From positions 1 to 60,481 of the IMG/VR virus record IMGVR_UViG_3300038462_000024: a stretch of 60,481 bases of DNA. One strand, 5' to 3'. The translations under genes were made by a program, and so were the position numbers. Positions 14,265 through 30,719 of the stretch are shown here, in pieces. Under the pieces are notes generated by a model. The model was given only the letters and a program-made list of their open reading frames with translations. It did not search any database and was not told where the DNA came from. The stretch's first letter is position 1. Every line of letters starts with the position of its first letter. The DNA is from a virus (lineage: Duplodnaviria; Caudoviricetes).

Positions 14265-14573
14265 ATGGAACATAGGGAAATAGACGAGTTGCGCCGGTAT
14301 GTTTGGGAAACGGCAGCAGAATTTGAGGTGGAGCTGCTTAGCCTCGCGGAGTTGATTGCTAGGCTGCAGGGGGTGGAGGCTACAATTCCCTCTTCGGGAA
14401 AAGCGACCGCTTCGCTCCAATGGCGATATGGTGAAGGCTGGGTAGCGGTGAGGGTCAGTTACATGCGGCCGGAAACTGACGAGGAGTGCGCGCGGCGGGT
14501 TGGCACTGAAAGGGAATTCGGTGCGATTCTGGCTCGGATGCGGGCAGAGGAAGGTCAAGGACTAGCCAGATGA
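14265..14573 (+). CDS. Hypothetical protein
   Basis: 102-aa ORF coupled to the next gene; preceded by palindromic CTTGACA-AAGGC-TGTCAAG promoter candidate at 14204-14222. Confidence 0.65.
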   Translation: MEHREIDELRRYVWETAAEFEVELLSLAELIARLQGVEATIPSSGKATASLQWRYGEGWVAVRVSYMRPETDEECARRVGTEREFGAILARMRAEEGQGLAR

Positions 14574-14983
14574 AAACATTGGCGGACGTAAATCGGGCTA
14601 ACCAGGCGTTTTGGAACCGGGGGACGCAGGACGCACAGAAACACGAGCCTGCGGGTTCGTCAAAGGGCGGTCAGTTTACTTCGGGTGGAGGTTCGGCGGG
14701 CGGCAAGGCTCCTGACCCTAAGCGCGCTAAACCCGGTAAAGGCGGCAGCAAGCCTAATTTTGGCCATGTCTCTTCCATGGGAAAGAATGCCGAAAAGGTG
14801 AAGCCGTTTAACTCCCGCGCTGACGCTGAAGCTGAAGCTGAAGCGGTCCGATTAGGGGGGCAACACGGTAAAGAATACCAGTTTACTGTTAGTCAGGGAT
14901 ATGCCCCGGATGACCCCCGCAAACCGGAATACCATGTTAATGTCAAGGTAGAGGGCAAGAATAGGGGAATGTTGTTTAAATGA
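14570..14983 (+). CDS. Putative capsid-internal protein with scaffold-like N-terminal helix
   Basis: MKTLADVNRANQAFW resembles the scaffold C-terminus; TQD/AQKHEPAGSSKGGQF motif variant. Confidence 0.7.
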   Translation: MKTLADVNRANQAFWNRGTQDAQKHEPAGSSKGGQFTSGGGSAGGKAPDPKRAKPGKGGSKPNFGHVSSMGKNAEKVKPFNSRADAEAEAEAVRLGGQHGKEYQFTVSQGYAPDDPRKPEYHVNVKVEGKNRGMLFK

Positions 14984-15366
14984 CCCGCAAGGCCCGGAAT
15001 TATCACGTCCATATTCACGTGAACGATGAGATAACCGGGTTTCTTACCGGCAACTCGGATAAGCGCCAGCAACCGGGCGGGCCGAATTTCGAATTGTACC
15101 GATCGTCAACTGGTATTCAGGACCAACAGGAATTGGATAAAACGGCAGACCTGATCGCGGCACAGGCCAGGGCTGAGCGGGCTAAGGCGGTCCGGGTGAA
15201 GGCGTCGGGCGCGGTGGAGTGGCAGGGGAGCCGGGGGTTGACTTCGGTTAATCTGTACCACGGGCGGCGCGCGGGGGTAACGAAAGAGGACTTGGAATAC
15301 ATGGTGCTCAAGCTGAAAGGCTTGGGGCTGGAAGTCCGGATATCGACGGCCACAGATAGGAAATAA
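14980..15366 (+). CDS. Putative capsid-internal protein with HVHIH motif
   Basis: N-terminal YHVHIHVND shared with the scaffold and other head-region proteins. Confidence 0.7.
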   Translation: MTRKARNYHVHIHVNDEITGFLTGNSDKRQQPGGPNFELYRSSTGIQDQQELDKTADLIAAQARAERAKAVRVKASGAVEWQGSRGLTSVNLYHGRRAGVTKEDLEYMVLKLKGLGLEVRISTATDRK

Positions 15367-15368
15367 CC

Positions 15369-15740
15369 ATGCACCAGGACACTGATTTGGTCAAGGCCAT
15401 CAAGGATTTAACCCGAGCCGTTTTGGCTCAAACTTCGGAGGAGAGACTACTCATGACTGCAATGGAAGACCTTCAGGCGGCGCTCGTCGCCACCCAGACC
15501 TCGCTTACCAATATCCAGACGGCCATCGGCGGTGCGACTGCCGCTATTACCAACGCTTCGGCGGACATTACGGCCCTGGCCGCCCAGCTTGCGGCGGCGC
15601 TTGCCGCTGGCGATCCGGTGGCTGTTGAGGCGGCGGCTCAGGCGTTTAATACGGCGGCGGCAAGCCTTGACTTGGCGGCTACGGGGCTTAATGACGCGGT
15701 TACGGCAGCCAATATCCCAGTTCCCGCAGCGGCTGCTTAA
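15369..15740 (+). CDS. Ala-rich coiled-coil protein
   Basis: Heptad Leu/Ala pattern; start at 15369 or 15453. Confidence 0.7.
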   Translation: MHQDTDLVKAIKDLTRAVLAQTSEERLLMTAMEDLQAALVATQTSLTNIQTAIGGATAAITNASADITALAAQLAAALAAGDPVAVEAAAQAFNTAAASLDLAATGLNDAVTAANIPVPAAAA

Positions 15741-15746
15741 ACCTCA

Positions 15747-18059
15747 ATGTCCCGGATGTTTCACGTCCACATTCAAGACCGGGCTCGCCGCCGTCGCGAT
15801 GAGTGGGGAGGGTTTCCGGACCCTTCTCCTCGGGCGGTTGCGGCGGCCCGCGAGATGTTTCCGGAAGATTCCCGGTTTGGGGAATCGGCTATTAACGATC
15901 CGGACGACGTGCTGCGGCGGATTAAGGCCGCAAGCGGAGTATCGGTGCTCCGGCAAGTGCTGTCTGAGTTGGAGACTGCCCGCAAAGAAGATGTGATTGA
16001 GATCGCGCGGCGGTTTACGGGGCGGAAAGCGGTTAGCACCAAAAAGGCAATCGACGATATTTGGACGACGTGGTACACGCGGCGCGGTACGGCGGATGCG
16101 GAGTGGCGGGAAGAGGAACACCCACGCAAAGATGATGGAAAGTTTGGTACGGGGGGTGACGGAGGCGTGCCCATCAGACAAGCTAGGCCACGAAAAGAGG
16201 CGGGGCTTGCGGTAACAGGGTTTCCCGTTGTTGATCTTCCCGAGAATACGCTGTCTAAGATAAAACAGGAGGCATGGGAACGGGCGGTTAAGGGCAAAGG
16301 GCCAAAACCCGATAAAATCAGAGTTCCGCTTTCTGAGTTAGTTTCATTTCAAGACGTGGTTGAAACCAGCAAAGTGAAAGCTATAGCTAAAAAATATAAA
16401 AGTGAAGAGGCTTTGTCGGAAATTGGGGACAGGCCCCGAGTTATTAAACTTGGTAATAAATACGTGCTTACGGATGGCAACCATCGAGCTAATGTCGCGC
16501 TGCTAAATAAACACAAAGAATTAGAAGTTAATTACTATGGGGATTTGACAGAGTTAGTTAAGGGAAATTCTGTTCAGGATAAGGATTGGGAAGAGCAAAA
16601 ACACCCCCGTAAAGAGGATGGAAAATTTGCAAAAGGCGGCGGTTCGGGCAAGAAGGTCGATTTGATGGCTGAGGCCAAGAGCCTCGGAATCAAAGTTACC
16701 ACTAAGACTACGGTGGCTCAGTTGCTGGCTGCGTTGGCGGCGGCCAAGGGTCAACCAGAACCGGAAGTGAAACCTAAGAAGATTGTTCCGGTCAAAAAAG
16801 TTAAGGAGCCGACTACGCTGTCCGGATGGCATACGTTAGCTACCAATGCTAAGATTTGGGTCGGTTCCCATTGGACGGTTGGACAAATAATAGCGGAGAT
16901 TGAAGACCGTCGACAGGTGCGGTTAAAACAATTTGAGGCTATGGGAGATCCCGTTTCCCCAGGGCTATCTGACACGGCCTTAGCTAAAGAGTACCGCAAA
17001 TTAGAGACGGAGGTCTACAAAGCGGGGGTTAAGATTGGGGCCGAGGTAGGGTTCGGCACACTGCCTACGGAAAACCATAAGGCATATTTGGAAAAAAAGG
17101 AATTAAACGCTAAGGCGAAAGCGCTTGGTGTTCCAGAAAAGGAATTAAATAAACCGAAGTTTGCCCTTGAAAAGGCCCTGGCTAAGTTAGCTTTGCTTAA
17201 GGAGCTTGAAGCGCTTAGTTGGGAAAAACTGGTATTGTTGGCCTTGAGGGACGGGTTGACTCTTCAGGCAATAACCAAGAGCAAGAGCAAGAGCACCCAA
17301 GCAGGGCTTGCTAAGTGGTTGTCGAAAAACACTTCGCACACGGAAGTGGCGGCTGCGCTTGCTGGTCCCAGTCTGGCCGGGCCGGACTGGGAGGGGCCGT
17401 GGAGCCCTGAAGTAGCCACGCCTCAACAGAAGAAAGCCATATATCGGTACACTGGGTGGGGATTTGAAAAAGTTAACGGGGCACTGCGCGGAAAATCTCC
17501 CCCTTCAGCATTTGAGGTCAAAGCAACTAAGTATTTAGATCAAATTACCCGTAATTCTACTTTTTCGGGTGTGCTTTACCGGGGCGTGTCTGCTAACACT
17601 TTACAAAAGTTTAGGGAGTTGGGAGTGACTGCGCCGGGCAAGGCCATTACAGATGACGCGTTCATGAGCTTTTCTAAGAGCAAGAAATTCGCGGCGGAGT
17701 GGAAACAGGGGGCTGTAATTGAGATGGTCGGGGGAAAGGGGTGTGCGGACATCAGCAGCATATCCGTACACAAAACGGAAGAGGAGGTGCTAGTGGCGCG
17801 GGGAGCTAGGCTTCGGGTTAAAAGTTGGGATGAGGCAGCTAAGACGCTAAAAGTTGTACTAGAGGGCACATCTTACACAGCTAAAACAGGAAAAGACGCG
17901 GCCCCTGACCCCCTGGCTGAATTGGATGAGGTTATGTCCAAAAGCCATAAGTGGGACATAACCTCGGAACCCCACGTAGACGGGGCTAGTTCGTTGGTTG
18001 ACCGGTGGGCTGCGGATGATGATTTCGGGCTGGGCGTGGTATTGGACGACGAAGAGTAG
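15747..18059 (+). CDS. Polyvalent head-associated protein: ParB-like domain, helix-extension-helix-like repeats, C-terminal ADP-ribosyltransferase (VIP2/Alt-like)
   Basis: LTDGNHRA (ParB-like); YTG...VNGALRG, LYRGV, FMSFS, TEEEVL (R-S-ExE ART motifs); immediately upstream of MuF. Confidence 0.85.
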   Translation: MSRMFHVHIQDRARRRRDEWGGFPDPSPRAVAAAREMFPEDSRFGESAINDPDDVLRRIKAASGVSVLRQVLSELETARKEDVIEIARRFTGRKAVSTKKAIDDIWTTWYTRRGTADAEWREEEHPRKDDGKFGTGGDGGVPIRQARPRKEAGLAVTGFPVVDLPENTLSKIKQEAWERAVKGKGPKPDKIRVPLSELVSFQDVVETSKVKAIAKKYKSEEALSEIGDRPRVIKLGNKYVLTDGNHRANVALLNKHKELEVNYYGDLTELVKGNSVQDKDWEEQKHPRKEDGKFAKGGGSGKKVDLMAEAKSLGIKVTTKTTVAQLLAALAAAKGQPEPEVKPKKIVPVKKVKEPTTLSGWHTLATNAKIWVGSHWTVGQIIAEIEDRRQVRLKQFEAMGDPVSPGLSDTALAKEYRKLETEVYKAGVKIGAEVGFGTLPTENHKAYLEKKELNAKAKALGVPEKELNKPKFALEKALAKLALLKELEALSWEKLVLLALRDGLTLQAITKSKSKSTQAGLAKWLSKNTSHTEVAAALAGPSLAGPDWEGPWSPEVATPQQKKAIYRYTGWGFEKVNGALRGKSPPSAFEVKATKYLDQITRNSTFSGVLYRGVSANTLQKFRELGVTAPGKAITDDAFMSFSKSKKFAAEWKQGAVIEMVGGKGCADISSISVHKTEEEVLVARGARLRVKSWDEAAKTLKVVLEGTSYTAKTGKDAAPDPLAELDEVMSKSHKWDITSEPHVDGASSLVDRWAADDDFGLGVVLDDEE

Positions 18060-18809
18060 TTGCCCCCTCACGCCGCCGTCTCTGAACAACGCCGAATTTG
18101 GGCGCACGTTAAGCGCGCTGAACGGTCATACTCCCGCAATCTGCGTTCGATTTCCCGGCAAATAGGCGTTATCACCAAAGAGCTTGCTCCTCACCCCGAT
18201 TCGCTGGAGGCTATGCTCCGGGAATACGCCCAGGTGCTGGTGCCTTGGGCGTATTCCGTGGCCTCCCGGATGCTTTCGGAGGCCCTGCGCCGGGATGACG
18301 CGGCCTGGAACCGGCTGTCGAAAACCATGAGCCGCGCGCTGGCGGAGGAAATCCGGGGTGCGCCAATCGGGGGCCGGTTACGCGAGTTGCAGCAGCAACA
18401 GGTTACTTTGATTACTTCGCTTCCCTTGGAAGCGGCCGAACGGGTGCACGCGCTGGCCCTAGAGATTCGGGTTTCCACGGCGGGCCGGGCTAAGGAGCTG
18501 GCCGCCGCGATCCTCGCCTCGGGCGACGTGTCGAAAGCTAGGGCCAACTGCATTGCTCGGACGGAAACGGCGCGGGTAGCCTCTAACTTCACTCAAGCCC
18601 GCGCGGAATTTGTGGGGTCTGAGGGGTACATTTGGCGCACTGCGGGGGATTTGGACGTCCGGAAGCTGCACCAAAAATTGAACGGGCAGTTTGTCCGATG
18701 GGACGCGCCACCAGTAGCGGGGAAGTCCAAAGCGGGGGAAATCCGGGCACACGCGGGGTGTTTTCCTAATTGCCGCTGCTATGCGGAACCGGTGGTGCCG
18801 GAAGTGTAA
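18060..18809 (+). CDS. MuF/SPP1 gp7-family head morphogenesis protein (no C-terminal extension)
   Basis: IARTETAR...YIWRTAGDLDVRKLH...HAGCFPNCRC. Confidence 0.93.
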   Translation: MPPHAAVSEQRRIWAHVKRAERSYSRNLRSISRQIGVITKELAPHPDSLEAMLREYAQVLVPWAYSVASRMLSEALRRDDAAWNRLSKTMSRALAEEIRGAPIGGRLRELQQQQVTLITSLPLEAAERVHALALEIRVSTAGRAKELAAAILASGDVSKARANCIARTETARVASNFTQARAEFVGSEGYIWRTAGDLDVRKLHQKLNGQFVRWDAPPVAGKSKAGEIRAHAGCFPNCRCYAEPVVPEV

Positions 18810-18819
18810 AATAGCCGCT

Positions 18820-19119
18820 ATGGAGGGCGTGCAGGTGTGTAGTTTCCTTACAGGCATTATGTGCCGGGTGTGCCTAAAAACCAAAACCTGTCGTGCCGTG
18901 GCCCCTCAATTGTCGCCGTCTTTGCCAGGAGTTGGTGCGCTTTTTGGGGGCGGGCTGTCGTTTGACCACGCTTGCCGGGTTGCCACTATGTTAGACGGGC
19001 TCGGCGTAACCGGTGAGGATTTGGAACTAGTCCAGGACCAGCTTCCGGAATACCATTGGGAGTGGAACGAGGAGGATGGGTTCCGGCCCTACCCGCATTC
19101 TTATCGCCGCAGGCACTGA
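18820..19119 (+). CDS. Hypothetical protein
   Basis: ORF filling the gap between MuF and the adaptor gene; start uncertain. Confidence 0.45.
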   Translation: MEGVQVCSFLTGIMCRVCLKTKTCRAVAPQLSPSLPGVGALFGGGLSFDHACRVATMLDGLGVTGEDLELVQDQLPEYHWEWNEEDGFRPYPHSYRRRH

Positions 19120-19131
19120 GGTACAATCAGG

Positions 19132-19530
19132 ATGGATATTGACGTCACGGATGTACTCTTGGACCCAATGATTGCGGGAGAACGCTTTACGGTCCTGCGC
19201 CGCCGGGAGCTGGTTAATAACCTAGGTGTGGCTGAGTGGCAATGGGAGACGTTTCCTAACATTATCGGTTCGGTTACGCCAACCGGGGATCAGAGCTTAG
19301 TCCGGGATGAGGGGTTCCAGGCGCAGGCTAAGACTATTTTGGTAATTACTGCCTTCAAGCTTCGGGGCGAGTCTAAGGACGAGGCCCGCCGCAATTACCA
19401 GCCGGACGTTGTGGTTTGGAATGAAAACTATTACATGGTTCGCACCGTGGATGACTATTCGCGGTATGGAGCGGGCTTTGTGCAAGCTGAATGTAGTTCA
19501 ACTGACTTGGTGGATCAGGCACCGCGCTAA
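19132..19530 (+). CDS. Head-tail adaptor/closure protein
   Basis: DVTDVLLDP...PDVVVW...DYSRYGAGFVQAEC pattern of this head module; context. Confidence 0.7.
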   Translation: MDIDVTDVLLDPMIAGERFTVLRRRELVNNLGVAEWQWETFPNIIGSVTPTGDQSLVRDEGFQAQAKTILVITAFKLRGESKDEARRNYQPDVVVWNENYYMVRTVDDYSRYGAGFVQAECSSTDLVDQAPR

Positions 19531-19545
19531 CCGGAGAAACATACA

Positions 19546-20538
19546 ATGATGACTGGTCTTGCGAATTTGAAATACGGGCGTTCTGGCCAGTTGTTGCCGA
19601 TGTCTCGCCCGGCTCGCCCCCTTTACCCTTTCCGTTGCCGGGCTAGGGCGCGCGACACGGGGCTTTCCGACTATTCGGCGAAGGCCCAGCTTAATTGGCT
19701 CACGGGCCAGGTAGCAATGCCCGCACTTCCCAACGTGTGGTTGTCGCTGTACACGGCGGTGGGAGCCGACGACAACACGGGGTTTACTGAGGTAACGGGC
19801 GGGGCATACGCCCGGCAGCAAGTCGCGGGCAATGTAGCCACTAACGGCACCACGGCTAACGGCAACGCCACGCTGCATTTCGCTTCGGTCCCGGCGTGGA
19901 TCGTGGCGGGCATGAGCATTTACGACACCACTGGGTCCGGCCTCATTCCAGCGGCCACCACGGTGTCTACGACGACCGGCACCACGGTAGTTATGAGTGC
20001 CAATGCTACCGGCGCGGGCGTCGGTTCGGGCGATAACATTGTGTTCTCGGCGTTCGCGGCCCCAACGGGGACCGGCCCCTCTCAGGCCACCAATTCGGCG
20101 GCGACGATTACGTTTCCTCAGGCAACGGCTAACTGGGGCACGGCCATCGCGTTTGGGCTTACCGATGCGAGCACCTCGGGCGACCTTCTTTCCTGGGACT
20201 ACTTGGGCAATCACGCATGGTTGCCCGCGTATGTTACGGCGGCATCCCCCGCCGTGCTCGATATTAAGGCACACGGGTACTCAATCGCGGACACCGTGGC
20301 ATTCTCGACGGAGTACGGCGGTACGGCCCCCTCGTTCTCGCAGTCGAATTTTACCGGGCTGCTCGCGGTCATCGCCACCAACTTTGCGACTGACGTTATC
20401 TCGGTGTCGAATGCCAGCACCAATGTTAACACGTCCACTAGCGGTTCGGGTATGGTGAGGAAGGTGCTGCAGCAGTCGATTCCAATCAACACGCAAGCGT
20501 CGTTCGCGGCCTCGTCGCTGGTAGTGGTATCGGCGTAA
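19546..20538 (+). CDS. Fibre/appendage protein with basic N-terminal propeptide
   Basis: WLSLYTA...TEVTGGAYARQ...ITFPQATANWG fibre-type motif; leader ending RCRARARD. Confidence 0.75.
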   Translation: MMTGLANLKYGRSGQLLPMSRPARPLYPFRCRARARDTGLSDYSAKAQLNWLTGQVAMPALPNVWLSLYTAVGADDNTGFTEVTGGAYARQQVAGNVATNGTTANGNATLHFASVPAWIVAGMSIYDTTGSGLIPAATTVSTTTGTTVVMSANATGAGVGSGDNIVFSAFAAPTGTGPSQATNSAATITFPQATANWGTAIAFGLTDASTSGDLLSWDYLGNHAWLPAYVTAASPAVLDIKAHGYSIADTVAFSTEYGGTAPSFSQSNFTGLLAVIATNFATDVISVSNASTNVNTSTSGSGMVRKVLQQSIPINTQASFAASSLVVVSA

Positions 20539-20587
20539 AACTTGAAGGGGCGCGAATGAAACATAGCTTGTTCGCGCCCGGCACATC

Positions 20588-23389
20588 ATGAGCACAACCG
20601 AGTTTAAGACCGCGACCGGGGCTGGATCGTTCCCGGTTCCGGTTGGCGTTACGTCCCTTACGCTCAAGGGCATTGGCGGCGGCGGCAACGGTTACGCCTC
20701 AACTGGCGGCGGCGGCGGTGGCGCGGGTGCGGCTTACGCGGCATCAACGATATCGGTCACAACCGCGCAGACCCTTTATTACAATATCGGCATTGGTGGA
20801 GGCACGTCCACAACAGGGCAGACCTGGGCTCAAATCGGGACCAATGCGGCTCCGTCGTCGAATACGGTTGGGATTTTAGCCCCTTACGGGCCGACAGCGA
20901 CAAGCACTACTGGTGCTGCCGCCGTCACGACCGGAGGAATAGGCACTACCGTTAACTACGGCGGCAGTGGGGGGAACACGACGGGCGGCGGCGGCGGCGC
21001 GGGTGGCCCAAATGGTTCTGGCGGCAAGGGCGGCAACAGCACGCAAGGTGCTGGTGGCGGTGGCGGCAATGGTGGGGGCACGGCGGGAGCTGATGGCTCC
21101 GGAGCCCCCGGCGGCGCGGGCGGCAATAATTCCGCCGGTAGCGGTAGCGGTGCGGGCGGAACGTCCGGTGGTCATAATGGCTCCGCCGGAACCAGCGGGG
21201 GTGGTGGCGGCGGCAGCTATTATACGGACGGCGCGGGTGGGCCAGGCAGCACTGGGACAGAATTCGACGCCAGCCATGGCTCAGGTAGTGGCGGCGGCGG
21301 GGGCTGGAAAGCGGCGGGGGGCAATGGCGGTCTTTACGGTGGTGGCGGGTCAGCCTCCGGCGGTTCGGGTGGAACCGCCGGAACTGGTGCTCAGGGCCTC
21401 CTTGTTATCACCTATGCCGCTACGGTTAGTTTGTCCGCTAAATCGAGTTCTGCGTCCACTTCCCGGCCTTCGGGGGTTTTTGCCGTGCGGCCTTCTGCTA
21501 AATCAAGGTTTGCATCTGCCCCCCGGTCCGCAGGGTCTTTTGCCCTTCGGTTATCGGCCAAAGAGCGGAGCGGGGTGTCGGTTAAGGTCCGGCCGAACTT
21601 AACCGTCCGGGGGGCGGGGGCAATTAAAGTCATCGGGGGGGATACAAGGATTGCGCCGCAGTTGCGGGCGGCGCTGGCTGCAAAAACCCTGTTTAGGGGG
21701 GCAATAACCAAAAACGTTCCGAACTTAACCATTATAAGTATGGCTAGGTCCTTTGTGGTGGCGTTTGCCCGCGCGGTGTCTAATTCCTCCACACAGGGAG
21801 TTGCGTTGTATGGTATAACCCGGTCAACGGCTCAAACTCGGGTTGGACCTCCGCAATTGGCTGCGGGAATGTTGGCTCGGGTTCGATCAAAAATGGGAGT
21901 TTGGTCCGCCCCCTCGTGGACCATACGGGTTTCGGCCAAGAGTGCTGCGGTGTCATTGGCACATGCGAACCCCAACTTGCTTATACAAGTTATTGCTTTA
22001 TTTGGCGGGTTCCGGGCGGCGGCTTGGCTTAAGTCTGGGCCGCAACTCTCCGCGAATTTGTTGGGTCAGTTGCGGTCGAAAGCCAGCGGCGCGATGGGTT
22101 TACCGAGCCTACCCTTACATATCCGAGCAGCCGTGTGGATGCGGAGCTGGGCAGGGGCGGCGGCCCAGCAATCGGGAGGACTTGGGGCGCGAATAACGGC
22201 TAGGGTTCGGGGTGTTTCGCACCCAACATTAGCCGTTTCAGTGGCCGGAACGAACCACACTAGGGGGGCCGTTACCGGCTGGCTATATTTAGGAGCCCCG
22301 TTACGGGCAATACTCCAAATGAACATAACGTTAGGCGCGGCGTTTGCTCGGATAATTAGTCCCTCCGCCCGGCTGGGGGAGGCGGTGCGCGGCGGGGCGC
22401 GTAGTTTCGCGGCCTCATCTCTATCGGGTTACGGGAGGCTCGCGATGTGGCTTAGACCCCGCCTCAGATACCCGATTCGGGTTACGGGGGTTTCGCGTAT
22501 CCGATTTGCGGAAACGGGCACTCCTCGGTTGCAATTGACTATTACCAAGGTGCGGGTTACTTCCCAAGTGTCGGGCGGGGCGGGAATCCGGGGACTAACA
22601 CGATTGGGGGGCCGAACCTTATCGCTCATCCGGGGCCGAGAGCGGCCTGCGTTAACCGTGGGGCTTTTTGGCCGGAGTGAAGCCCAAACCTTGGCCCGTA
22701 CTCGGTGGCGGCTGGCCGCCCGGTTGTTGGGGCGGGCGCGATCCGGGGCGGCGGCCTCGGGCAGCTTTTTGGGCAAGACGGCGCTCACCGCCGCTGCCCG
22801 GCTGGCGCAATTCTCGTCGATCAAACCCCGGCTGGCGCTCCGAAACCTGGCGGGCTCCTTGGCCTCAAGGGTGGCCGGGCGCACCCGGAACGTGGCCTCG
22901 TTATTGTCAGGCGTTTCGCGGCTGCGGTCTGGTTTCCGGGGGCAAGCATACTTGTTCAAACTGGGTCAGTTGGCTCAGGGGTTTTCGTTTTTCGGTCCGC
23001 ATCGCCGTCGCACTATTTCTATGGTAAATGGAGCAGTAACCTTGTCAGCTTGTTTGGACTTGTTGCCCCCCATTGACGCGGGAGTAGAGCGGGAATGGGT
23101 AACGTTTGATTACGGCCGCGTGTTGGTTGCCGGGGTAACTATTGTTTCGGCAACGGTTACATGCGTCGTGGAATCGGGGTCCGGCACGGACCTTACGCCT
23201 GGCGCTCGGTTGGTTGGGTCCCCGGTGGTTATTGCTTCGCCTCGGACCGGCGCGACCCGCGCGGCAATCGCGCAGTTGGTTGGCAATTGTCAGGCGGATG
23301 TGGTTTACCAGTTTCAATGTGTGGCCGCCACCACGGACGGGCAACTCCTGTCCCTGTGGGGCCGCCTCAGTTGTATAGCTCCGGAATAG
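20588..23389 (+). CDS. Glycine-rich fibre protein with long Arg/Ala-rich segment and C-terminal adaptor-like domain
   Basis: Gly-rich domain (~aa 1-280), low-complexity basic middle, C-terminal EWVTFDYG...TIVSATV domain. Confidence 0.75.
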   Translation: MSTTEFKTATGAGSFPVPVGVTSLTLKGIGGGGNGYASTGGGGGGAGAAYAASTISVTTAQTLYYNIGIGGGTSTTGQTWAQIGTNAAPSSNTVGILAPYGPTATSTTGAAAVTTGGIGTTVNYGGSGGNTTGGGGGAGGPNGSGGKGGNSTQGAGGGGGNGGGTAGADGSGAPGGAGGNNSAGSGSGAGGTSGGHNGSAGTSGGGGGGSYYTDGAGGPGSTGTEFDASHGSGSGGGGGWKAAGGNGGLYGGGGSASGGSGGTAGTGAQGLLVITYAATVSLSAKSSSASTSRPSGVFAVRPSAKSRFASAPRSAGSFALRLSAKERSGVSVKVRPNLTVRGAGAIKVIGGDTRIAPQLRAALAAKTLFRGAITKNVPNLTIISMARSFVVAFARAVSNSSTQGVALYGITRSTAQTRVGPPQLAAGMLARVRSKMGVWSAPSWTIRVSAKSAAVSLAHANPNLLIQVIALFGGFRAAAWLKSGPQLSANLLGQLRSKASGAMGLPSLPLHIRAAVWMRSWAGAAAQQSGGLGARITARVRGVSHPTLAVSVAGTNHTRGAVTGWLYLGAPLRAILQMNITLGAAFARIISPSARLGEAVRGGARSFAASSLSGYGRLAMWLRPRLRYPIRVTGVSRIRFAETGTPRLQLTITKVRVTSQVSGGAGIRGLTRLGGRTLSLIRGRERPALTVGLFGRSEAQTLARTRWRLAARLLGRARSGAAASGSFLGKTALTAAARLAQFSSIKPRLALRNLAGSLASRVAGRTRNVASLLSGVSRLRSGFRGQAYLFKLGQLAQGFSFFGPHRRRTISMVNGAVTLSACLDLLPPIDAGVEREWVTFDYGRVLVAGVTIVSATVTCVVESGSGTDLTPGARLVGSPVVIASPRTGATRAAIAQLVGNCQADVVYQFQCVAATTDGQLLSLWGRLSCIAPE

Positions 23390-23406
23390 CTGGGGCGGAT
23401 AGAGGT

Positions 23407-23493
23407 TGCCGGGCCTTGGGCTCAAGCCCGGCAGGGGCCGGTTGTTAGATCCGTATACCTCCATGCGGATAATCTACTGGGGCAACCGGCCCC
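23407..23493 (+). other. Structured intergenic element (two hairpins)
   Basis: TGCCGGG/CCCGGCA stem; GGGGCCGGTTG/CAACCGGCCCC outer stem enclosing ATCCGTAT/ATGCGGAT. Confidence 0.5.
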
Positions 23494-23512
23494 ACAACTA
23501 AAGGGAATTGAT

Positions 23513-24175: not shown

Positions 24176-24186
24176 GAGCGCAGGTA

Positions 24187-25908
<1,722 letters not shown>

Positions 25909-25932
25909 TCCTGGGAGCGGCTGGAGAAAATA

Positions 25933-26580
25933 ATGGAAAATACCTTCAAGTATGACAGCCGGTCGGCTCTGGCCGCTCCGGCAGTTCTAAGGCCCATTCA
26001 GCGGGGGCGTCACCGCACCTTGGATGTGGCCTTCAATTATCGGATGGGTGCGGGCTTCGCGGGCATGGTCACCCGCACCCATCCCGTCGCATTGGAGCCC
26101 AGTGTTCTGGACGCCACCAATCCGCCCACAACGTATGGGCAGGCCGTGGTGGTTAATACGGCGGCGAACTCCGTTCGAGTTGTTCTGTCCACCGATACCG
26201 CAATCACGACCATTTACGGCATCACGGTCCGGCCGTACCCGTTCCAGGCGTCGTCAAGCACGGGGGCATACGGCGCGGAGGGGTTTGCCACTTCGGCCTC
26301 GCTCCCCGTGCTGCAGGCGGGCCAGGTGGTGGATATCCTGCGCCAGGGGTACATCATGGTCCCCTGCGTAGGCTCGCCCACTAAGGGCGGAGAGGTTTTC
26401 CTCTGGATCGGCGCTACGGGCGGCGGGCATACCCATGGCTGCTTCGAGGCGGCCACATCTGGGGACGCCAACACCGTTGCGTTGAGTGGCTACCCTGGCG
26501 GGGCAATCCCGGCCACGGTGTCGTTTAACGGGCCGCTCGATACGACTTCGGGGCTGGTCGAGCTGGCGTTCAACATCTAA
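25933..26580 (+). CDS. Capsid decoration/cement protein
   Basis: Between scaffold and MCP; FNYRMGAGFAG, YGITVRPYP, ILRQGYI; ends ELAFNI. Confidence 0.8.
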   Translation: MENTFKYDSRSALAAPAVLRPIQRGRHRTLDVAFNYRMGAGFAGMVTRTHPVALEPSVLDATNPPTTYGQAVVVNTAANSVRVVLSTDTAITTIYGITVRPYPFQASSSTGAYGAEGFATSASLPVLQAGQVVDILRQGYIMVPCVGSPTKGGEVFLWIGATGGGHTHGCFEAATSGDANTVALSGYPGGAIPATVSFNGPLDTTSGLVELAFNI

Positions 26581-26599
26581 CAGAGGAAATTTGAAGCTA

Positions 26600-27763
26600 A
26601 TGCTTAATATTCAGCCTTCATTCCCTGCTCCGGCCATTATCCGGTTTCCAGGAGCACTTCGGGGCAGGGCGCGCGCCCTGGATAATCTAACAGGCTATGG
26701 GTGGGCGGGCAACCAGCGTACCCATGATGCCCTAGGCAATGCCATGGGTGCCCGGCTGGGGGGCAACTTCCGGACCAACGATGGTCGCACGGTGGATTCC
26801 ACGGGCGCATTCCTCGTCGGTGAGCTTGAACGGCTCGACATGACGCTGCACAACCCGCTGGTGGCGGTGACTTGGGGCCGCGACATCCAACTCCGCGACG
26901 ACGTTACCATCGCGGATGAAGTGTCGAGCTTCACGCTGTCCACATACGGTTCGCCGGGTTCGCTGGGCACAGGCAGTTCCATCGGCAACGGCAAAGCCTG
27001 GATCGGCAAGACCACTAACCAGATTACGGGCGTTGGCGTCGATATCGCCAAGATCCCGCACCCGCTGCGGCCTTGGGGCCTGGAAATCCGGTTCACCATT
27101 CTCGAACTGGAATCGGCGGCCAAACTCGGCCGCCCGGTCGATGCCCAGAAATACGCGGGCATGCAGCTCAAGCACCAAATGGACATCGACGAGCAGGTGT
27201 ACATCGGCGATACCGTCACGGGCGATACCGGCCTCATCAACAACGCGCTGGTGACTTCCCGGTTTAATCTTCCGGCGGGCGTCTCGGGCTCCACGGCTTG
27301 GGCATTCAAGACCCCGGACGAGATCCTGAACGATGTCAACTACGTGTTGACCACGACTTGGGCCAATTCCGGTTATGCGGTCATCCCCAGCCGCCTGTTG
27401 CTGCCCCCGACGCAATTCGGCTACATCAGCACGCAAAAAGTCTCCCTGGCAGGCAATGTGTCCATTCTGAAGTATATCCAGGAAAACAACCTGCTCACCA
27501 CATCCGGCCAGGGCAAACTTGAGATTTACCCCCTCAAGTGGCTGGTCGGCGCGGGCTTAGGTGGCACTATCGGCACGGCGGGCACCGTTGACCGCATGGT
27601 GGCATACACCAACGAAAAGGACCGCGTGCGCTACCCGATGACGCTCCTACAGCGCACGCCGATTCAATACGACTCGATTTACCACAAAACCACTTATTTC
27701 TGCCGCATGGGCGTTGTCGAGTGCGTCTACCCTGAAACGCTGTCGTATGGGGATGGGTTGTAG
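26600..27763 (+). CDS. Major capsid protein (DUF2184-like)
   Basis: TGAFLVGELERLD, TWGRDI, KTPDEILND, LLLPP..F, DRMVAY; GAGG RBS before ATG 26600. Confidence 0.93.
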   Translation: MLNIQPSFPAPAIIRFPGALRGRARALDNLTGYGWAGNQRTHDALGNAMGARLGGNFRTNDGRTVDSTGAFLVGELERLDMTLHNPLVAVTWGRDIQLRDDVTIADEVSSFTLSTYGSPGSLGTGSSIGNGKAWIGKTTNQITGVGVDIAKIPHPLRPWGLEIRFTILELESAAKLGRPVDAQKYAGMQLKHQMDIDEQVYIGDTVTGDTGLINNALVTSRFNLPAGVSGSTAWAFKTPDEILNDVNYVLTTTWANSGYAVIPSRLLLPPTQFGYISTQKVSLAGNVSILKYIQENNLLTTSGQGKLEIYPLKWLVGAGLGGTIGTAGTVDRMVAYTNEKDRVRYPMTLLQRTPIQYDSIYHKTTYFCRMGVVECVYPETLSYGDGL

Positions 27764-27793
27764 CCGTAGCAGACTATAACTAAATATAAAGAC

Positions 27794-27821
27794 AGGGACG
27801 GCGGGAGGCCCCGCCGTCCCT
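27794..27821 (+). terminator. Strong hairpin after MCP (stabiliser or terminator)
   Basis: Perfect 12-bp stem AGGGACGGCGGG-AGGC-CCCGCCGTCCCT; no U-tract. Confidence 0.55.
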
Positions 27822-27854
27822 CAGCCCCAGTAATCTTTGGAGGAATGTGTACCA

Positions 27855-28829
27855 ATGCCAGTTAGATCGTTCACCGGGCCGGACGGCCAGACGTTTAAAT
27901 TAGGCAGAAAAATCCCAACATCTCGCGCCCCGGTCCTGCGCTTAAAGAACTATATGACTACTGTGTTACCTCAGCTCCCCGCTGCTTATGATTACACCCC
28001 GATGGCCCAGGCGGCCCTTGGGCAGATGTACAATAACGATTCGCTGGGCGATTGCGTGATTGCCGCGATGGAGCACGTACAGGGCGTATTTACCGGAAAC
28101 GCCTCGGGCAGCCCGCTGCAGTTTTCGGCCAATCAGACCATTGGTATGTACTCGGCGGCGTGCGGGTATGTTCCCGGCCAGCCCAGGACGGACGCCGGTT
28201 GCGATATCCAGCAGGTGTTTTCTTATTGGGGAGATAAGGGGTCGCCCCAGGGATCTGGCCACAAGATCGCCGGTTGGTTGGCTGTGGATCCCACTTCGGT
28301 TACGGAAGTCCAAACGGCGATATGGCTGTTTGAAAATGTCTTTTTCGGGATTTGTATGCCCGATGCTTGGGTCAACCCTCTCCCCCGCCAATCGGGTTTC
28401 ATTTGGGATGCGGCGGGAAGCCCGGACCCCTACAACGGCCACTGCTTCCCCGGAGTGGCGTACGACTCGGCTGGAGTCGTTATTTCCACTTGGGCAATGC
28501 TGGGCCGGATTACATACAGGGCAATAGCCCAGTACGCGGCGGACAGGGCTCAGGGCGAGTTGTACACCGTCATCAGCCAGGATCAGTTGAATGCCGCCAG
28601 CGGGATGGCTCCCAATGGGTTCAATTGGGACCAACTGACGGCAGATTTCACAGCTCTAGGCGGCGGTGTGACGCCGCCCACGCCGCCCACGCCGCCCACG
28701 CCGCCCGCGACTCTGCTCCAGCAACTGGCCACCGACGTGCAAAAGCTCGTGTCGGACGCGCAGACGGACGGCGCGGCGGTTGCCCTGGACTTGGCGGCAA
28801 TTCTCGCGGCGGGCACGCCGAAATCCTAA
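27855..28829 (+). CDS. Papain-like cysteine peptidase
   Basis: NDSLGDCVIAA (Cys), GHCF (His), ISTW; PTP linker and helical tail; GGAGG RBS. Confidence 0.7.
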   Translation: MPVRSFTGPDGQTFKLGRKIPTSRAPVLRLKNYMTTVLPQLPAAYDYTPMAQAALGQMYNNDSLGDCVIAAMEHVQGVFTGNASGSPLQFSANQTIGMYSAACGYVPGQPRTDAGCDIQQVFSYWGDKGSPQGSGHKIAGWLAVDPTSVTEVQTAIWLFENVFFGICMPDAWVNPLPRQSGFIWDAAGSPDPYNGHCFPGVAYDSAGVVISTWAMLGRITYRAIAQYAADRAQGELYTVISQDQLNAASGMAPNGFNWDQLTADFTALGGGVTPPTPPTPPTPPATLLQQLATDVQKLVSDAQTDGAAVALDLAAILAAGTPKS

Positions 28830-28844
28830 CCACGGAGGTTTGAC

Positions 28845-29216
28845 TTGGATATCAATAGACCTGCGCCGGGCGCTACGCGCTGGCAGACCCCCGGCTCCGC
28901 ACCGTTCGGGATGCTTTCCCCGGAAACGGCTAAACTAAGGGAGGACGAACCAACTTTTACCATGGTTTTCCCTCAGGATGTGATTGTCACCCGTGATGAT
29001 ATGTCCAAGGTCCATTTCCGGATGGGAATCCAGGAAGTTCCCGAACACATCAAGGACCACTGGTATTTGCGGGGCGCGGGAGTAATTATGTACACCAAGC
29101 CCGAACCGGTTAAAGTTCCCGCACCTGCGGCGGCCGTGGCGCAGCCGGTTCCTCTGCCCGCTTCCTCGGCCCCGGTTAAAGCGCCGCCCCGCGCGTCGCA
29201 GAAATCCGGAGGTTAA
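28845..29216 (+). CDS. Small conserved head-region protein (STY1053-like)
   Basis: FRMGIQEVPEHIKDHWY motif; Pro/Ala tail. Confidence 0.65.
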   Translation: MDINRPAPGATRWQTPGSAPFGMLSPETAKLREDEPTFTMVFPQDVIVTRDDMSKVHFRMGIQEVPEHIKDHWYLRGAGVIMYTKPEPVKVPAPAAAVAQPVPLPASSAPVKAPPRASQKSGG

Positions 29217-29221
29217 GGGCT

Positions 29222-29560
29222 ATGCCGCTGACTAAAAAGGGGGAAAAGATCATGTCTCATATGAAGCAGGAATACGGGCCGAAGAAGGGGGAAGGCGTGT
29301 TCTACGCCTCCGCCAACAATGGCACGATTTCGGGTGTGCACCCCAAGGATTCGGACGATCCGAACGCGGTGCAGTTAATGGGGCCATTTAACCCCAAGTC
29401 GGCGGCCAAGCCCTCAATCGACCCGCCCCGGTTTCATGATAACATGGTGCCGGGCACGGGCGAGTTGGCGGGGGAGATTGTCAAGGTCCTCCCCGACAAT
29501 ATCTCGGCAGCGTCTATCAACGAGGCTAATAAGAAGTTGTGGCGGTCAGCCGGAGGCTAA
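29222..29560 (+). CDS. Small basic protein with scaffold-like C-terminal helix
   Basis: MPLTKKGEKIM...VFYASANNG N-terminal domain; SAASINEANKKLW C-terminus. Confidence 0.7.
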   Translation: MPLTKKGEKIMSHMKQEYGPKKGEGVFYASANNGTISGVHPKDSDDPNAVQLMGPFNPKSAAKPSIDPPRFHDNMVPGTGELAGEIVKVLPDNISAASINEANKKLWRSAGG

Positions 29561-29563
29561 CCC

Positions 29564-30064
29564 ATGATTACCCCCCAGTCTTTCCGCATCGATTACCCCG
29601 AATTTAGGGACCAAGGACGGTACCCGGATTCGGGCATTCAGCTTTTCGTCGCGGTCGCGGGGATGCTCTTCAATAAGCGGCTTTGGGGGGAACCTTCGGT
29701 TGCGGCGGCCAACCCGCCCACTACCATGTACGACATTGGGGTGGAGCTGTTCATAGCGCACAACTTGGCTTTGGAATTCCAACAGATTAAGGCGTCAGAA
29801 AATGGGGCCGTGCCCGGCCTCACCACTGGCGTTATTTCTAGTAAGAGCGTCGGCAGCGTTTCAATCAGTTACGATACGGCGTCAGGCGTCGAGGCCGATG
29901 CGGGCCATTGGAACTTGACCACCTATGGCATCCGGTTTATCCGGCTTAGCAAGCAGTTCGGGGCCGCGCCGTTTATCGCGGCGGGCAACATGGTTCCCAA
30001 TGACTGGTCAACAACCTCCACCCCCGCCTGGCCAGGGCCGCCGTTCTTTGGGTTTTCTAATTAG
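29564..30064 (+). CDS. Head-tail connector (DUF4054-like)
   Basis: FRIDYPEF...YPD...LFIAHNL...SVGSVSISYD...WNLTTYG. Confidence 0.85.
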   Translation: MITPQSFRIDYPEFRDQGRYPDSGIQLFVAVAGMLFNKRLWGEPSVAAANPPTTMYDIGVELFIAHNLALEFQQIKASENGAVPGLTTGVISSKSVGSVSISYDTASGVEADAGHWNLTTYGIRFIRLSKQFGAAPFIAAGNMVPNDWSTTSTPAWPGPPFFGFSN

Positions 30065-30074
30065 AGGCTGTAAG

Positions 30075-30719
30075 ATGGCTATACATATCCACATACATAC
30101 GGGGGATGCCTGGGAAGAGGAGAAACACCCCCGCAGAAAAGACGGAAAGTTTGGGGCGGGGGCAGGCGGCGTAGCTAAAACACCCAAAGCCGCCTCATCT
30201 AAACAAGCCCTTCTTCCTAGTGACCATAAAGCAACCGCCCCCCAGATCAAACGAGCGCTGGCTAAACTTAAGCCATCACCTGATGAGGACGCGGATTACA
30301 ACAGCCCTCTTCGCCGTGTTCCGGATGAGATTCCGGCCAGAGCGAGGGAATATGAAGACGAAGAGTACGAGGAGGAAGACGAAGATGAGCCCTATCGTAT
30401 CTCTCAAGAAATGGTCGAAGAGTTCCTAATTCCTAATTTGAAAGGAAAATATAGGAAACTGGGGGTGGAAATTGACCCGGCAACTGTTTTTTGTTGGCAG
30501 TCCGAACTGTGGAAAACCCCGCTTGAGATATATATGAAAAACCCCAACGAAGACACCGGCGGGGGCACGACGCGGCGACCTGTGGTAACTAAGTTGCACG
30601 GGATACCTGTTGTGCAAGACGGAAATCACAGGGTGGTGGCGGCGCTTCTTTCGGGCCGCAAAATAAAAGTGGATTATTATGACTTGGATAAGGCCAAGAA
30701 AGACGGGGTTGAGTGGTAA
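30075..30719 (+). CDS. ParB-like domain protein with HIHIH and WxExKHPR motifs
   Basis: MAIHIHIHTGDAWEEEKHPRRKDGKF; PVV...QDGNHRVVAA; GAGG RBS. Confidence 0.8.
   Translation: MAIHIHIHTGDAWEEEKHPRRKDGKFGAGAGGVAKTPKAASSKQALLPSDHKATAPQIKRALAKLKPSPDEDADYNSPLRRVPDEIPARAREYEDEEYEEEDEDEPYRISQEMVEEFLIPNLKGKYRKLGVEIDPATVFCWQSELWKTPLEIYMKNPNEDTGGGTTRRPVVTKLHGIPVVQDGNHRVVAALLSGRKIKVDYYDLDKAKKDGVEW

Follow-up and report, generated by a model that had tools for sequence, protein, structure and literature searches.

Scaffold-copied leaders on unrelated head-cluster proteins suggest an undescribed mode of cargo loading and trimming in tailed-phage heads

Outside T4, by what means do tailed phages select, load and trim the proteins that they inject with their DNA? 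The DNA analyzed here (60,481 nucleotides, referred to as the window) is a complete tailed phage of 60.5 kb in which several proteins of the head module are probably carried inside the head. An earlier note on this DNA had proposed that such proteins follow a grammar of address tag, Asp-ending site, the motif WxExxHPRxxxGKF (HPR motif) and payload. Our analysis found this grammar to be real, recurrent and non-random, although the restriction of the HPR motif to capsids did not hold. The leader grammar of the head cargo, for which we found no description in the literature, reads as T4-like capsid targeting in a new form. The presence of common tags on otherwise unrelated proteins of the head cluster, and on many other phage proteins, suggests an undescribed system for loading and trimming cargo in heads.

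The first element of the grammar is a strand with alternating histidines. The pattern HxHI[HQ], said in the earlier note to lie near the N-terminus of three head proteins and inside the protease-scaffold, occurs exactly four times in the six frames of the 60,481 bases, always in head genes and always on the plus strand, as do all the features given below. Three copies fall within residues 4-13 of their proteins: at nt 15004 in gene 14980-15366 (residues 9-13), at nt 15762 in gene 15747-18059 (residues 6-10) and at nt 30084 in gene 30075-30719 (residues 4-8). The fourth, at nt 24814, corresponds to residues 210-214 of a DUF2213 prohead protease fused to a scaffold (24187..25908; protease at residues 16-176, PF09979, E 2.6e-46), within the internal strand GHVHIHVGGG (nt 24811-24840). 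At the sequence level, the His tag of 14980, 15747 and 30075 is a copy of this strand, and the copies differ at synonymous codon sites, which places their conservation at the protein level. A short N-terminal leader is common to these three otherwise unrelated head proteins. In the 128-aa product of 14980, which had no family match in Pfam, PHROG or NCBIfam, it is composed of Met, seven residues, HVHIH (nt 15004-15018) and V-N-D (14980..15027); in the 770-aa polyvalent protein encoded by 15747 it reads MSRMF, HVHIQ, D (15747..15779). The 214-aa product of 30075 has a composite leader (30075..30170) made of MAIHIHIH, T-G-D, an HPR motif (30111-30152) and a Gly-rich spacer, and AGAGG lies 8-12 bases before its ATG. 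A histidine triad (HIT) protein was also considered, since the string H-phi-H-phi-H-phi-phi fits; it was rejected because the HIT motif belongs within a fold of about 100 residues, whereas here the string sits either in a disordered linker or in leaders only 11-16 residues long, and Pfam gave no HIT domain in the strand-bearing proteins of the window.

The protein from which these addresses appear to be copied has the features of a head protease. H80, S135 and H159 do not vary across 32 sequences, and the ten-residue blocks of residues 11-160 average a pLDDT of at least 94 in the structure model, with residues 197-238 below 50. The best Foldseek matches of the model were T4 gp21 (5jbl) and herpesvirus assemblins, with weak E-values (2.6e-3 and weaker) and a probability of 0.9-0.97. 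The modelled assemblin-like fold, together with the conserved Ser and two His, places it among the prohead serine proteases of the gp21/herpesvirus type. The His strand lies in a low-confidence linker of this model, as expected of a linear motif, and was not docked on the protease in the AF2 model.

A second address is the C-terminal helix of the same protein, IKTAAELNNLHREYYSKS (nt 25852-25905), which had been described as echoed in 14570 and 29222. The echo was recovered by a profile and not by pairwise BLASTP, which gave no similarity between 14570 and the scaffold. The profile, whose 19 columns derive from the C-termini of 44 scaffolds in other phages, was run against all 825 ORFs of the window. 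Its three best matches were 29222 at its C-terminus (i-E 0.17), 14570 at its N-terminus (0.18) and the window's own scaffold at its C-terminus (0.44), the next being 4.4. In the 137-aa protein (gene 14570-14983) the copy is N-terminal (14570..14632), is also detected by a regular expression at residue 7 and is followed by T-Q-D; in the 112-aa protein (gene 29222-29560) it is C-terminal (29501..29557) and is conserved in the homologue of a related phage, L001. A scan of 82 sources, namely 80 loci in addition to L001 and the window, gave terminal copies of the helix signature only in the latter two.

The six Asp-ending triplets TQD, VND, TAD, VQD, TGD and VRD were all present where the earlier note had set them, after a tag or before a payload. 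Furthermore, W.E..HPR...GKF occurs three times in the window (nt 16104, 16587 and 30111), each time 2-3 residues after the Asp, and a profile of 100 copies of the motif returned only those three (i-E 7e-14 to 5e-13; next match 5.6). In the 770-aa protein, a first payload junction (16089..16166; profile i-E 3.2e-13) made of T-A-D, the HPR motif (16104-16145) and a Gly-rich spacer stands before a ParB/Srx-like module with the core DGNHR (16431..16538). A second junction (16572..16649; i-E 6.8e-14), with V-Q-D, the HPR motif (16587-16628) and another Gly-rich spacer, comes after it, and the C-terminal end bears the predicted ADP-ribosyltransferase (ART) payload (residues 557-706, 17415..17864; PF03496 E 2.4e-12, PF01129 E 6.8e-6). 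In 30075, the composite leader is followed by another ParB/Srx-like payload core with DGNHR (30576..30680). The proposed pyrophosphatase-like domain was likewise borne out, as the C-terminal extension of the portal (12661..13017) contains S-V-R-D-A-E-W (12661-12687) and then an InPase (12721-13017; PF18823 E 1.6e-17). The DAEW of this extension was not significant with the motif profile and is a mere resemblance, and a stretch of 14570 (14633-14704) previously read as a degenerate HPR motif was not significant either (best i-E 8.9). The gene for a MuF-like minor head protein (18060..18809; PF04233 E 4.5e-12; phrog_324 E 6.6e-57) starts a single base downstream of the polyvalent protein's stop codon.

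The tags also recur and co-occur in other phages. The His-alternating strand is present at the same position in 18 of 32 aligned DUF2213 protease-scaffolds. His-tagged cargo was found in 18 of 79 loci around HPR genes, 17 of these 18 having a DUF2213 protease, and tagged cargo and strand-bearing protease occurred together in all 17 assessable loci. In 15 of these proteases the strand was detected by a strict regular expression and in one by eye (L421, SIHIHVG); the 17th is cut by the contig end, but the strand was seen in L351 of the same contig. None of the 35 DUF2213 loci lacking tags had the strand, and the pairing likewise holds in L001, G001, G002 and G004. The loci are phylogenetically related, so that p-values overstate their independence; grouped by eye, they represent about 6 tagged and 12 untagged lineages. 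Additionally, a profile of 7 leaders searched against 1.84e9 (1.84 billion) protein-cluster representatives matched 1,700 of them at E<=1e-3, of which 230 reached E<=1e-10, and in 59 of about 150 best matches the His strand and the motif lay within the first 70 residues. These 59 carriers are unrelated small proteins with the leader at their extreme N-terminus. No Pfam family was assigned to 55 of 60 tagged proteins examined.

Comparison with L001, which is 81% identical to the window, showed that cargo genes have been gained and lost between the two. The L001 homologue of 14980 keeps HLHIHVND; 14570 and 30075 have no counterpart in L001 (for 30075, at the corresponding place). In the homologue of 15747 the strand reads LRIRLLD, with Arg replacing His, which indicates that His is not essential. 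The frame of this homologue ends inside the first HPR motif, with MuF directly after it, and the boundary of the payload block of 15747 between the two phages falls exactly at that motif.

With respect to the Asp-ending site, every unique context from DUF2213 loci (40 of 40) had an Asp at most four residues before the W of the HPR motif, vs 15 of 41 contexts from loci where the roughly 10 kb covered on each side gave no DUF2213 match (Fisher p 7.7e-11). The Asp is present in DUF2213 contexts even when no His strand precedes it, e.g. behind portals. Between the His strand and the HPR motif T-[RK]-D-[AS] is conserved, and 47 of 87 best leader-profile matches have T at the second position ahead of the Asp. 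T.D was not enriched after the strand of the scaffolds themselves (6 of 10 scaffolds vs 40 of 67 background windows). In the contexts compared, the Asp before the HPR motif tracks the loci of DUF2213 proteases, and it is only from this co-variation that we infer cleavage after the Asp.

Motifs, positions, conservation and the co-variation with the protease family are direct observations, and a mechanism can be proposed that would join them. The address elements would be copied pieces of the phage's own DUF2213 protease-scaffold, either the His strand or the C-terminal helix, and such a piece may let the cargo join the protease/scaffold core during prohead assembly, as the capsid-targeting sequence does in T4. 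The DUF2213 serine protease would then cut after the Asp, removing the address and separating the modules of the 770-aa polyvalent protein. The payloads (ParB/Srx-like, ADP-ribosyltransferase and others) would remain in the head, carrying the HPR motif at the N-terminus created by the cut, where it could meet a binding partner, and would leave the head together with the DNA. Taken as a whole, this account of a scaffold-copied address, an Asp-ending site, usually an HPR-Gly payload head, and a payload trimmed by the protease has in our view slightly better than even prospects of being correct. A wider reading, which we hold tentatively and rate somewhat below even, is that HPR-Gly is a universal payload head, that the residues before the W reflect the head-protease specificity of each lineage and that addresses copied from scaffold or protease suffice to load any protein. 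HPR-Gly would then mark the start of every delivered module in polyvalent proteins of tailed phages and in related toxins and, with the residues before the W encoding the protease specificity of the lineage, polyvalent proteins would be true polyproteins.

As a payload-boundary module, the HPR motif is far more general than this system, and other lineages put their own conserved residues before it. It has matches in at least 132 stretches of viral DNA and at least 126 of prokaryotic DNA and is not peculiar to DUF2213/DUF2184 heads, since it also stands behind portals of four families, behind MuF, behind proteases of the Mu and S78 types and behind two Rhs shells. In 27 of 66 viral motif ORFs it stands behind a head-internal anchor (19 portals, 4 MuF, 3 DUF2213 and 1 S78 protease). 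At least two motifs were present in 88 of 149 best matches, with a median spacing of 267 residues, and each giant multi-motif protein has its own conserved residues directly before the W. Two Rhs/YD-shell toxins have the motif about 10 residues after DPxGL, and it forms the very N-terminus of chromosomal M23, lysozyme and GH108 proteins (peptidoglycan hydrolases) and of deamidases, whose genes adjoin housekeeping genes for gyrase, ABC-transporter or ribonucleotide reductase. The motif is thus not specific to capsids and is found where a prohead protease cannot act. These occurrences outside prophage head modules favour the view that HPR-Gly serves delivered effectors in general as a boundary or 'pre-payload' cassette, with a role like that of the conserved pre-toxin motifs in polymorphic toxins and none in capsid loading or prohead proteolysis. 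Such a cassette would mark recombination swap points or function in the target cell once delivered, the tags before it being incidental lineage-specific leaders. The association of the motif with portals of four families and proteases of at least three points the same way, as do the difference between the window and L001 that stops exactly at the motif and the frequent position of the motif at the very N-terminus, the W being at most 10 residues from the earliest start in 47 of 106 genome-contig contexts, so that nothing is left to cut off. We still regard such a cassette as unlikely; it leaves unexplained that the residues before the W co-vary with the protease family and are conserved within each giant protein, and that the His tag equals the protease-scaffold strand in every assessable locus. 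In addition, the eight residues fixed in every copy recovered from many phyla, seven of them specified by the search pattern, argue for a partner at the protein level and not only for a DNA recombination handle.

Cleavage would be dispensable if the His strand were a co-assembly element only, with strands of scaffold and cargo pairing, possibly bridged by a metal between their His faces, the cargo acting as a pseudo-scaffold subunit and the Asp being part of the HPR motif structure, e.g. a helix cap. His alternating with Ile/Val is indeed the pattern of a beta strand with two faces, metal binding by HxHxH loops is known (e.g. PMC8773511), the protease model places the strand in a flexible linker, and an Asp three residues before the W is not confined to DUF2213 loci, being fairly frequent elsewhere as well (32 of 127 viral contexts). 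We judge this reading quite improbable: it is at odds with the T-[RK]-D-[AS] conserved between strand and motif, with an Asp that does not depend on a preceding His strand in the DUF2213 contexts and with the Arg that replaces His in L001. As for chance, low complexity or recent intragenomic copying without function, the shortness of the motifs and the marginal E-values of the scaffold-helix profile (0.17-0.44) would allow for it, but the absence of further copies in six frames, the synonymous differences between copies, their terminal positions and hundreds of independent occurrences in other records make it extremely improbable.

Scaffold-copied addressing followed by trimming, the account that we prefer, resembles the capsid-targeting system of T4, in which internal proteins, otherwise unrelated, share a short N-terminal leader believed to guide them into the core of the scaffold and to end at the protease site, as described in PMC3012670. 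The likeness extends to the protease, gp21 being the best fold match of the one in the window. The sequences differ; the leader here copies a strand of a DUF2213 protease-scaffold fusion from another Pfam family, the predicted site ends in Asp, a second and far more widespread motif follows it, and packaging and cleavage are predictions here. The gp21 cleavage site ends in Glu, an acidic ending that the Asp site resembles.

Polyvalent proteins with ART, ParB-like, InPase, NUDIX, PBECR and LPD domains have been described as encoded among head genes, and effectors of this kind fused to portal, MuF or capsid protease are predicted to be injected with the DNA (Iyer et al. 2017, PMC5512222; PMC9503650); one polyvalent protein has been reported in virions of phi24B (doi 10.64898/2026.04.10.717836). 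The 770-aa protein, with a ParB/Srx-like module and an ART and encoded between portal and MuF, belongs to this class, as does the portal with its InPase. 'HPR' does not occur in the main text of PMC5512222 and PMC9503650, where no description of the junction motif, the His tag or the Asp site was found; processing is credited there to zincin-like metallopeptidase domains, none of which was found by Pfam in the proteins of the window. The MuF polymorphic toxins of temperate phages, presented by Jamet et al. 2017 (PMC5576092) in a main text that contains none of the words motif, linker, cleav and HPR, are alike in having variable payloads, toxins or effectors, attached behind a conserved module of a head protein. 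Assignment to these toxins, in which MuF and a C-terminal toxin form one polypeptide, was rejected because MuF (18060-18809) is a separate ORF after the stop of the ART-bearing protein.

Cargo-loading peptides of encapsulins and C-terminal helices of scaffolds bind HK97-fold shells; cargo that bears a copy of such a short terminal helix can occupy the shell site of the native partner, and the reuse of the scaffold C-terminal signature at the termini of 14570 and 29222 is similar, capsid binding being a candidate role by analogy. Viral polyproteins and the pre-toxin motifs of polymorphic toxins have repeated junctions, with a lineage-specific stretch before a constant element. The payload-sized spacing of the HPR motif and its position after the DPxGL site of Rhs are alike in this respect, whereas the constant HPR element lies on the payload side and is common to many phyla and several delivery contexts. 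Polyvalent proteins have so far been catalogued by domain, not by processing. The grammar in 1,700 representatives and its co-variation with the head protease family make the loading and trimming question directly testable. It would also offer a way to predict ejected effectors in metagenomic phages. If the wider reading is true, sequence alone would tell which proteins uncultured phages eject, and the specificities of head proteases could be deduced by co-variation. The analysis also flags a 14-residue motif that no entry in Pfam, NCBIfam or PDB covers.

Lastly, the ParB-like segments of 15747 and 30075, for which Pfam gave no match in the window proteins, are identical at 18 of 36 residues around DGNHR (pairwise E 7e-7). 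The model of 30075 (mean pLDDT 63) gave weak matches to sulfiredoxin, SerK, ParB and Noc folds (E 0.03-0.4, probability >0.9), and a related tagged protein, P0134, matches ParBc_2 at 26.0 bits (cut-off 23.6).

Judging by the gene content of the window (60,481 bases, a record estimated to be 100% complete), the phage is myovirus-like and the tagged genes lie in its head module. The + strand of the window encodes a portal (PF06381) with an InPase domain at its C-terminus, an M15 peptidase whose gene (13151-13642) overlaps the end of the portal gene, several small genes after it, the 770-aa protein of gene 15747, which ends in an ADP-ribosyltransferase, and MuF, followed by fibre-like and Gly-rich proteins. 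The same strand carries a DUF2213 protease fused to a scaffold (24187-25908), a cement protein and a PF09950 major capsid protein, a DUF4054 adaptor, neck proteins, a DUF3383 sheath and, after the capsid gene, a 330-aa protein without a tag (27837-28829; phrog_19005) with a PTPPTPPTPP linker. The M15 peptidase, also untagged, may be a virion-associated wall hydrolase.

According to an earlier note, otherwise unrelated head proteins of this phage share short modules, and the modules were indeed found. Scanning six frames revealed exactly four copies of the His tag, HxHI[HQ] (nt 15004, 15762, 24814 and 30084), three of them ending at or before residue 13 of an ORF and one inside the protease-scaffold, and three copies of W.E..HPR...GKF, the HPR motif (nt 16104, 16587 and 30111). 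Copies of the modules differ from each other at synonymous positions, and all six Asp-ending triplets proposed to separate tag from payload lie at the positions claimed for them. A profile of 100 HPR motif copies gave just three clear matches in the window. With this profile neither an HPR-like stretch in gene 14570 (i-E 8.9) nor the portal's DAEW was significant as a further copy.

The His tag was found to track the protease. At the position of the window's GHVHIHVG, 18 of 32 aligned DUF2213 protease-scaffolds carry a His-alternating strand; reading the alignment by eye, four of the remaining 14 have R[LV]VIEVK and ten nothing comparable. Among 79 loci around HPR-motif genes, 18 contain His-tagged cargo, 17 of these together with a DUF2213 protease, and the eighteenth is a 6.9-kb fragment whose cargo is identical to one found beside a DUF2213 protease in another locus (L383). 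The strand is present in all 17 proteases (strict regex finds 15, L421 was recognised by eye, and for L368, which is cut by the contig end, the strand is seen in L351 on the same contig) and is missing from all 35 DUF2213 loci whose HPR cargo is untagged (Fisher p 3e-14, computed with 36 untagged loci, a difference that changes it little); the paired loci are related, amounting by eye to about 6 tagged and about 12 untagged lineages. The pairing also holds in L001, a relative of the window, and in G001, G002 and G004, the last of which has three tagged genes in tandem ahead of the portal, one of them resembling a 2H phosphoesterase and lacking the HPR motif. In sequence, then, the His tag copies the strand of the protease-scaffold. 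The prophage-like contig of G004 (C92; loci L348-L350) is titled as a Flavobacterium MAG and, having a high G+C content by eye, may be mis-binned.

In the protease-scaffold the strand follows the protease domain and precedes the first scaffold helix; the structural model leaves this segment disordered (pLDDT <50, residues 197-238). The protease domain itself was modelled confidently, with T4 gp21 and herpesvirus assemblins as best structural matches, and H80, S135 and H159 are invariant in the alignment. Docking of the strand on the protease in cis was discarded, as the model leaves the strand disordered, and so was a HIT domain, since the strand is an 11-16-residue leader or a disordered linker and Pfam shows no HIT.

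The Asp site co-varies with the protease family as well. An Asp lies at most four residues before the W of the HPR motif in 40/40 unique contexts from DUF2213 loci (22 at -3 only, 11 at -2 only) and in 15/41 contexts from loci without a DUF2213 match (p 7.7e-11), and the rule of the DUF2213 loci is the same behind a portal, a helical leader or a His strand. The grammar of tag, Asp site and payload proposed in the earlier note does recur, and its Asp goes with DUF2213 loci, but T.D is not enriched after the scaffold strand (6/10 vs 40/67 elsewhere in these T/D-rich proteins). Giant polyvalent proteins carry up to 15 motif copies by regex, or up to 18 matched stretches by HMMER, at a median distance of 267 residues, and each has its own conserved residues just before W, which vary between proteins; such a pattern would be expected if these were polyproteins, each cut by the protease of its own lineage. 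Five HPR junctions in a 1,354-aa ORF of one IMG/VR contig (L031/L032) share a near-identical upstream stretch, [IV]-x-D-[AV]-E-W, and the ORF has a weak PI3/PI4-kinase-like match at its end.

His strand, Asp site and HPR motif also recur together as a composite leader. Seven aligned leaders from six contig lineages share invariant M, H, D, W, E, HPR, G, F and two Gly, and the derived profile, searched over 1.84 billion representatives, matched 1,700 at E<=1e-3, 230 at E<=1e-10 and 4 at E<=1e-30. The 60 examined among the 1,700 all start with M-x-[KR]-x-[IV]-H-[IV]-H-[IVL]-H and continue, after 0-6 residues, with T-[RK]-D-[AS] and the HPR motif; 55 of them have no Pfam family, and in the other five the match lies outside the leader. 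By regex on the best 149 of the 1,700, strand and motif fall within the first 70 residues in 59 (the window's own protein left out), with T at -2 from the Asp in 47/87 and R or K at -1 in 37/87. NCBIfam showed nothing over the leader in 19 scanned proteins, 14 of them leader-bearing. Searching with whole proteins, a word-index homology search of the tagged cargo 30075 returned the self match alone among 469 candidates, tblastn of 30075 against phages gave no match, and the same search with P0038, a tagged protein, gave just a C-terminal domain match in one portal.

An echo of the scaffold's C-terminal helix had also been claimed for 14570 and 29222, and here the two approaches disagree. A profile built from 44 scaffold C-termini of other phages ranked, among 825 window ORFs, the 29222 C-terminus (i-E 0.17), the 14570 N-terminus (0.18) and the window's scaffold C-terminus (0.44) ahead of the next at 4.4, which supports the echo, but BLASTP of 14570 against the window's scaffold found no similarity. 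A helix-signature regex over 82 sources (80 loci, L001 and the window) matched 44 + strand contexts, 39 of them protease-scaffold C-termini and the others being 14570, 29222, the L001 homologue of 29222 and two sites probably due to chance; on the - strand of these sources there were 4 matches. In DUF2213 phages without the His strand (L353, L385, L389, L398, L410, L418 and L419), x-D-A-x-W is preceded in small HPR proteins by a leader of 15-25 residues that looks like an amphipathic helix and may represent a second class of address element. BLASTP gave nothing for the L385 leader as a copy of its own scaffold helix.

The HPR motif is widespread. Its back-translated DNA pattern matched at least 132 viral-contig and at least 126 prokaryotic genome-contig stretches, against one or two matches per collection expected by chance (hand arithmetic); a reversed control gave none in the window. 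Among the matches listed, the 127 unique contexts from viruses yield a longer consensus, (D)-A-[ED]-W-x-E-[SE]-[KD]-HPR-x-x-D-GKF-G/T-x-GGGG, with D at -3 from W in 32/127 vs a 7% background, and the motif follows a head-internal anchor in 27 of 66 viral ORFs scanned (15 Phage_portal_3, 3 Portal_Mu, 1 lambda-type portal, 4 MuF, 3 DUF2213 and 1 S78_2 protease). Payloads behind it include LPD3, LPD13, PBECR1-3, ART, InPase, NUDIX, Zeta toxin, RelA_SpoT and topoisomerase IB, and no Pfam match in the 66 ORFs overlaps the motif itself. The genome-contig ORFs scanned for domains (57/82) add Phage_portal, a Mu-like protease I that itself starts with the motif, and payloads such as M23, lysozyme, GH108 and glutamine deamidase. 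The motif lies at or near the N-terminus of several prohead proteases (Mu-like protease I in L233 and L296, DUF2213 in L418 and L420). Among the matches listed, the W is at most 10 residues from the earliest possible start in 47/106 genome contexts vs 7/90 viral ones. Two Rhs/YD-shell toxins carry the motif about 10 residues past the DPxGL site; they come from Nitratidesulfovibrio / Desulfovibrio contigs, where it precedes a pesticin-like lysozyme (L238) and a glucosaminidase (L248). Additionally, some Gastranaerophilales copies adjoin gyrase, ABC-transporter or ribonucleotide-reductase genes, not phage genes. Stand-alone proteins on Gastranaerophilales MAG contigs (L251, L253, L275, L276, L279, L283, L297 and others) start with M-x-x-W-N-E-x-E-HPR..GKF-T-[FY]-K-N-G-G, finish with an M23, lysozyme, GH108 or glutamine-deamidase domain and show no signal peptide by eye. 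No PDB chain matched the motif at E<=10, and tblastn with its 23 residues, an insensitive search that gives no evidence of absence, found none in plasmids and 4 weak matches in phages.

We read the system as a putative grammar of leaders for cargo carried inside the head. In this reading, an address element taken over from the protease-scaffold would let the cargo join the assembling core, the DUF2213 protease would cut the Asp-ending site, and the payload would retain the HPR element at the N-terminus so created. The proposed address and cutting steps have a parallel in the T4 capsid-targeting sequence (PMC3012670), the payload repertoire is like that of polyvalent proteins (PMC5512222, PMC9503650), and one polyvalent protein has been detected by proteomics in phi24B virions (doi 10.64898/2026.04.10.717836). 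The HPR element is not simply a prohead-protease site or a capsid address, since it is present in Rhs toxins and stand-alone chromosomal enzymes; a function in the retention or exit of the mature payload is weakly favoured over that of a pure linker or a recombination role. Effectors packaged in the head, packaging directed by leaders and mimicry of the scaffold are kinds already known, but these particular elements, the way they are coupled and how widely they occur appear to be undescribed. 'HPR' is absent from the main text of PMC5512222, whose supplementary alignments might show the motif, and of PMC9503650, and words for motif, linker or cleavage do not occur in the main text of the MuF-toxin paper (PMC5576092). 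String searches for the HPR motif and HxHxH found no description and, among the matches listed, no phage paper; likewise, literature searches on DUF2213, MuF/effector packaging and polyvalent proteins since 2018 gave no description among the matches listed.

Lastly, comparison with L001, whose protease is 81% identical to that of the window, revealed modularity. L001 retains homologues of 14980 and 29222, tags included, and has no counterpart of 14570 or 30075; its version of 15747 breaks off within the first HPR motif, MuF starts immediately after, and the block of ParB-like module, second motif and ART is missing. The L001 MuF (3124-4320) has 398 aa vs 249 aa in the window, with a C-terminal extension of about 150 residues. 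Between MuF and protease (window 19546-23389; L001 4741-9483) lie two genes, one for a Gp80-like fibre protein (PF23140) and one for a Gly-rich protein without family (933 aa in the window, 1,240 aa in L001), which possibly encode head fibres or decorations. The scaffold part (window 24900-25700) is of extreme low complexity, alternating basic and acidic blocks (RRRHSD, then Asp runs of up to about 17), and this run is shorter in L001.
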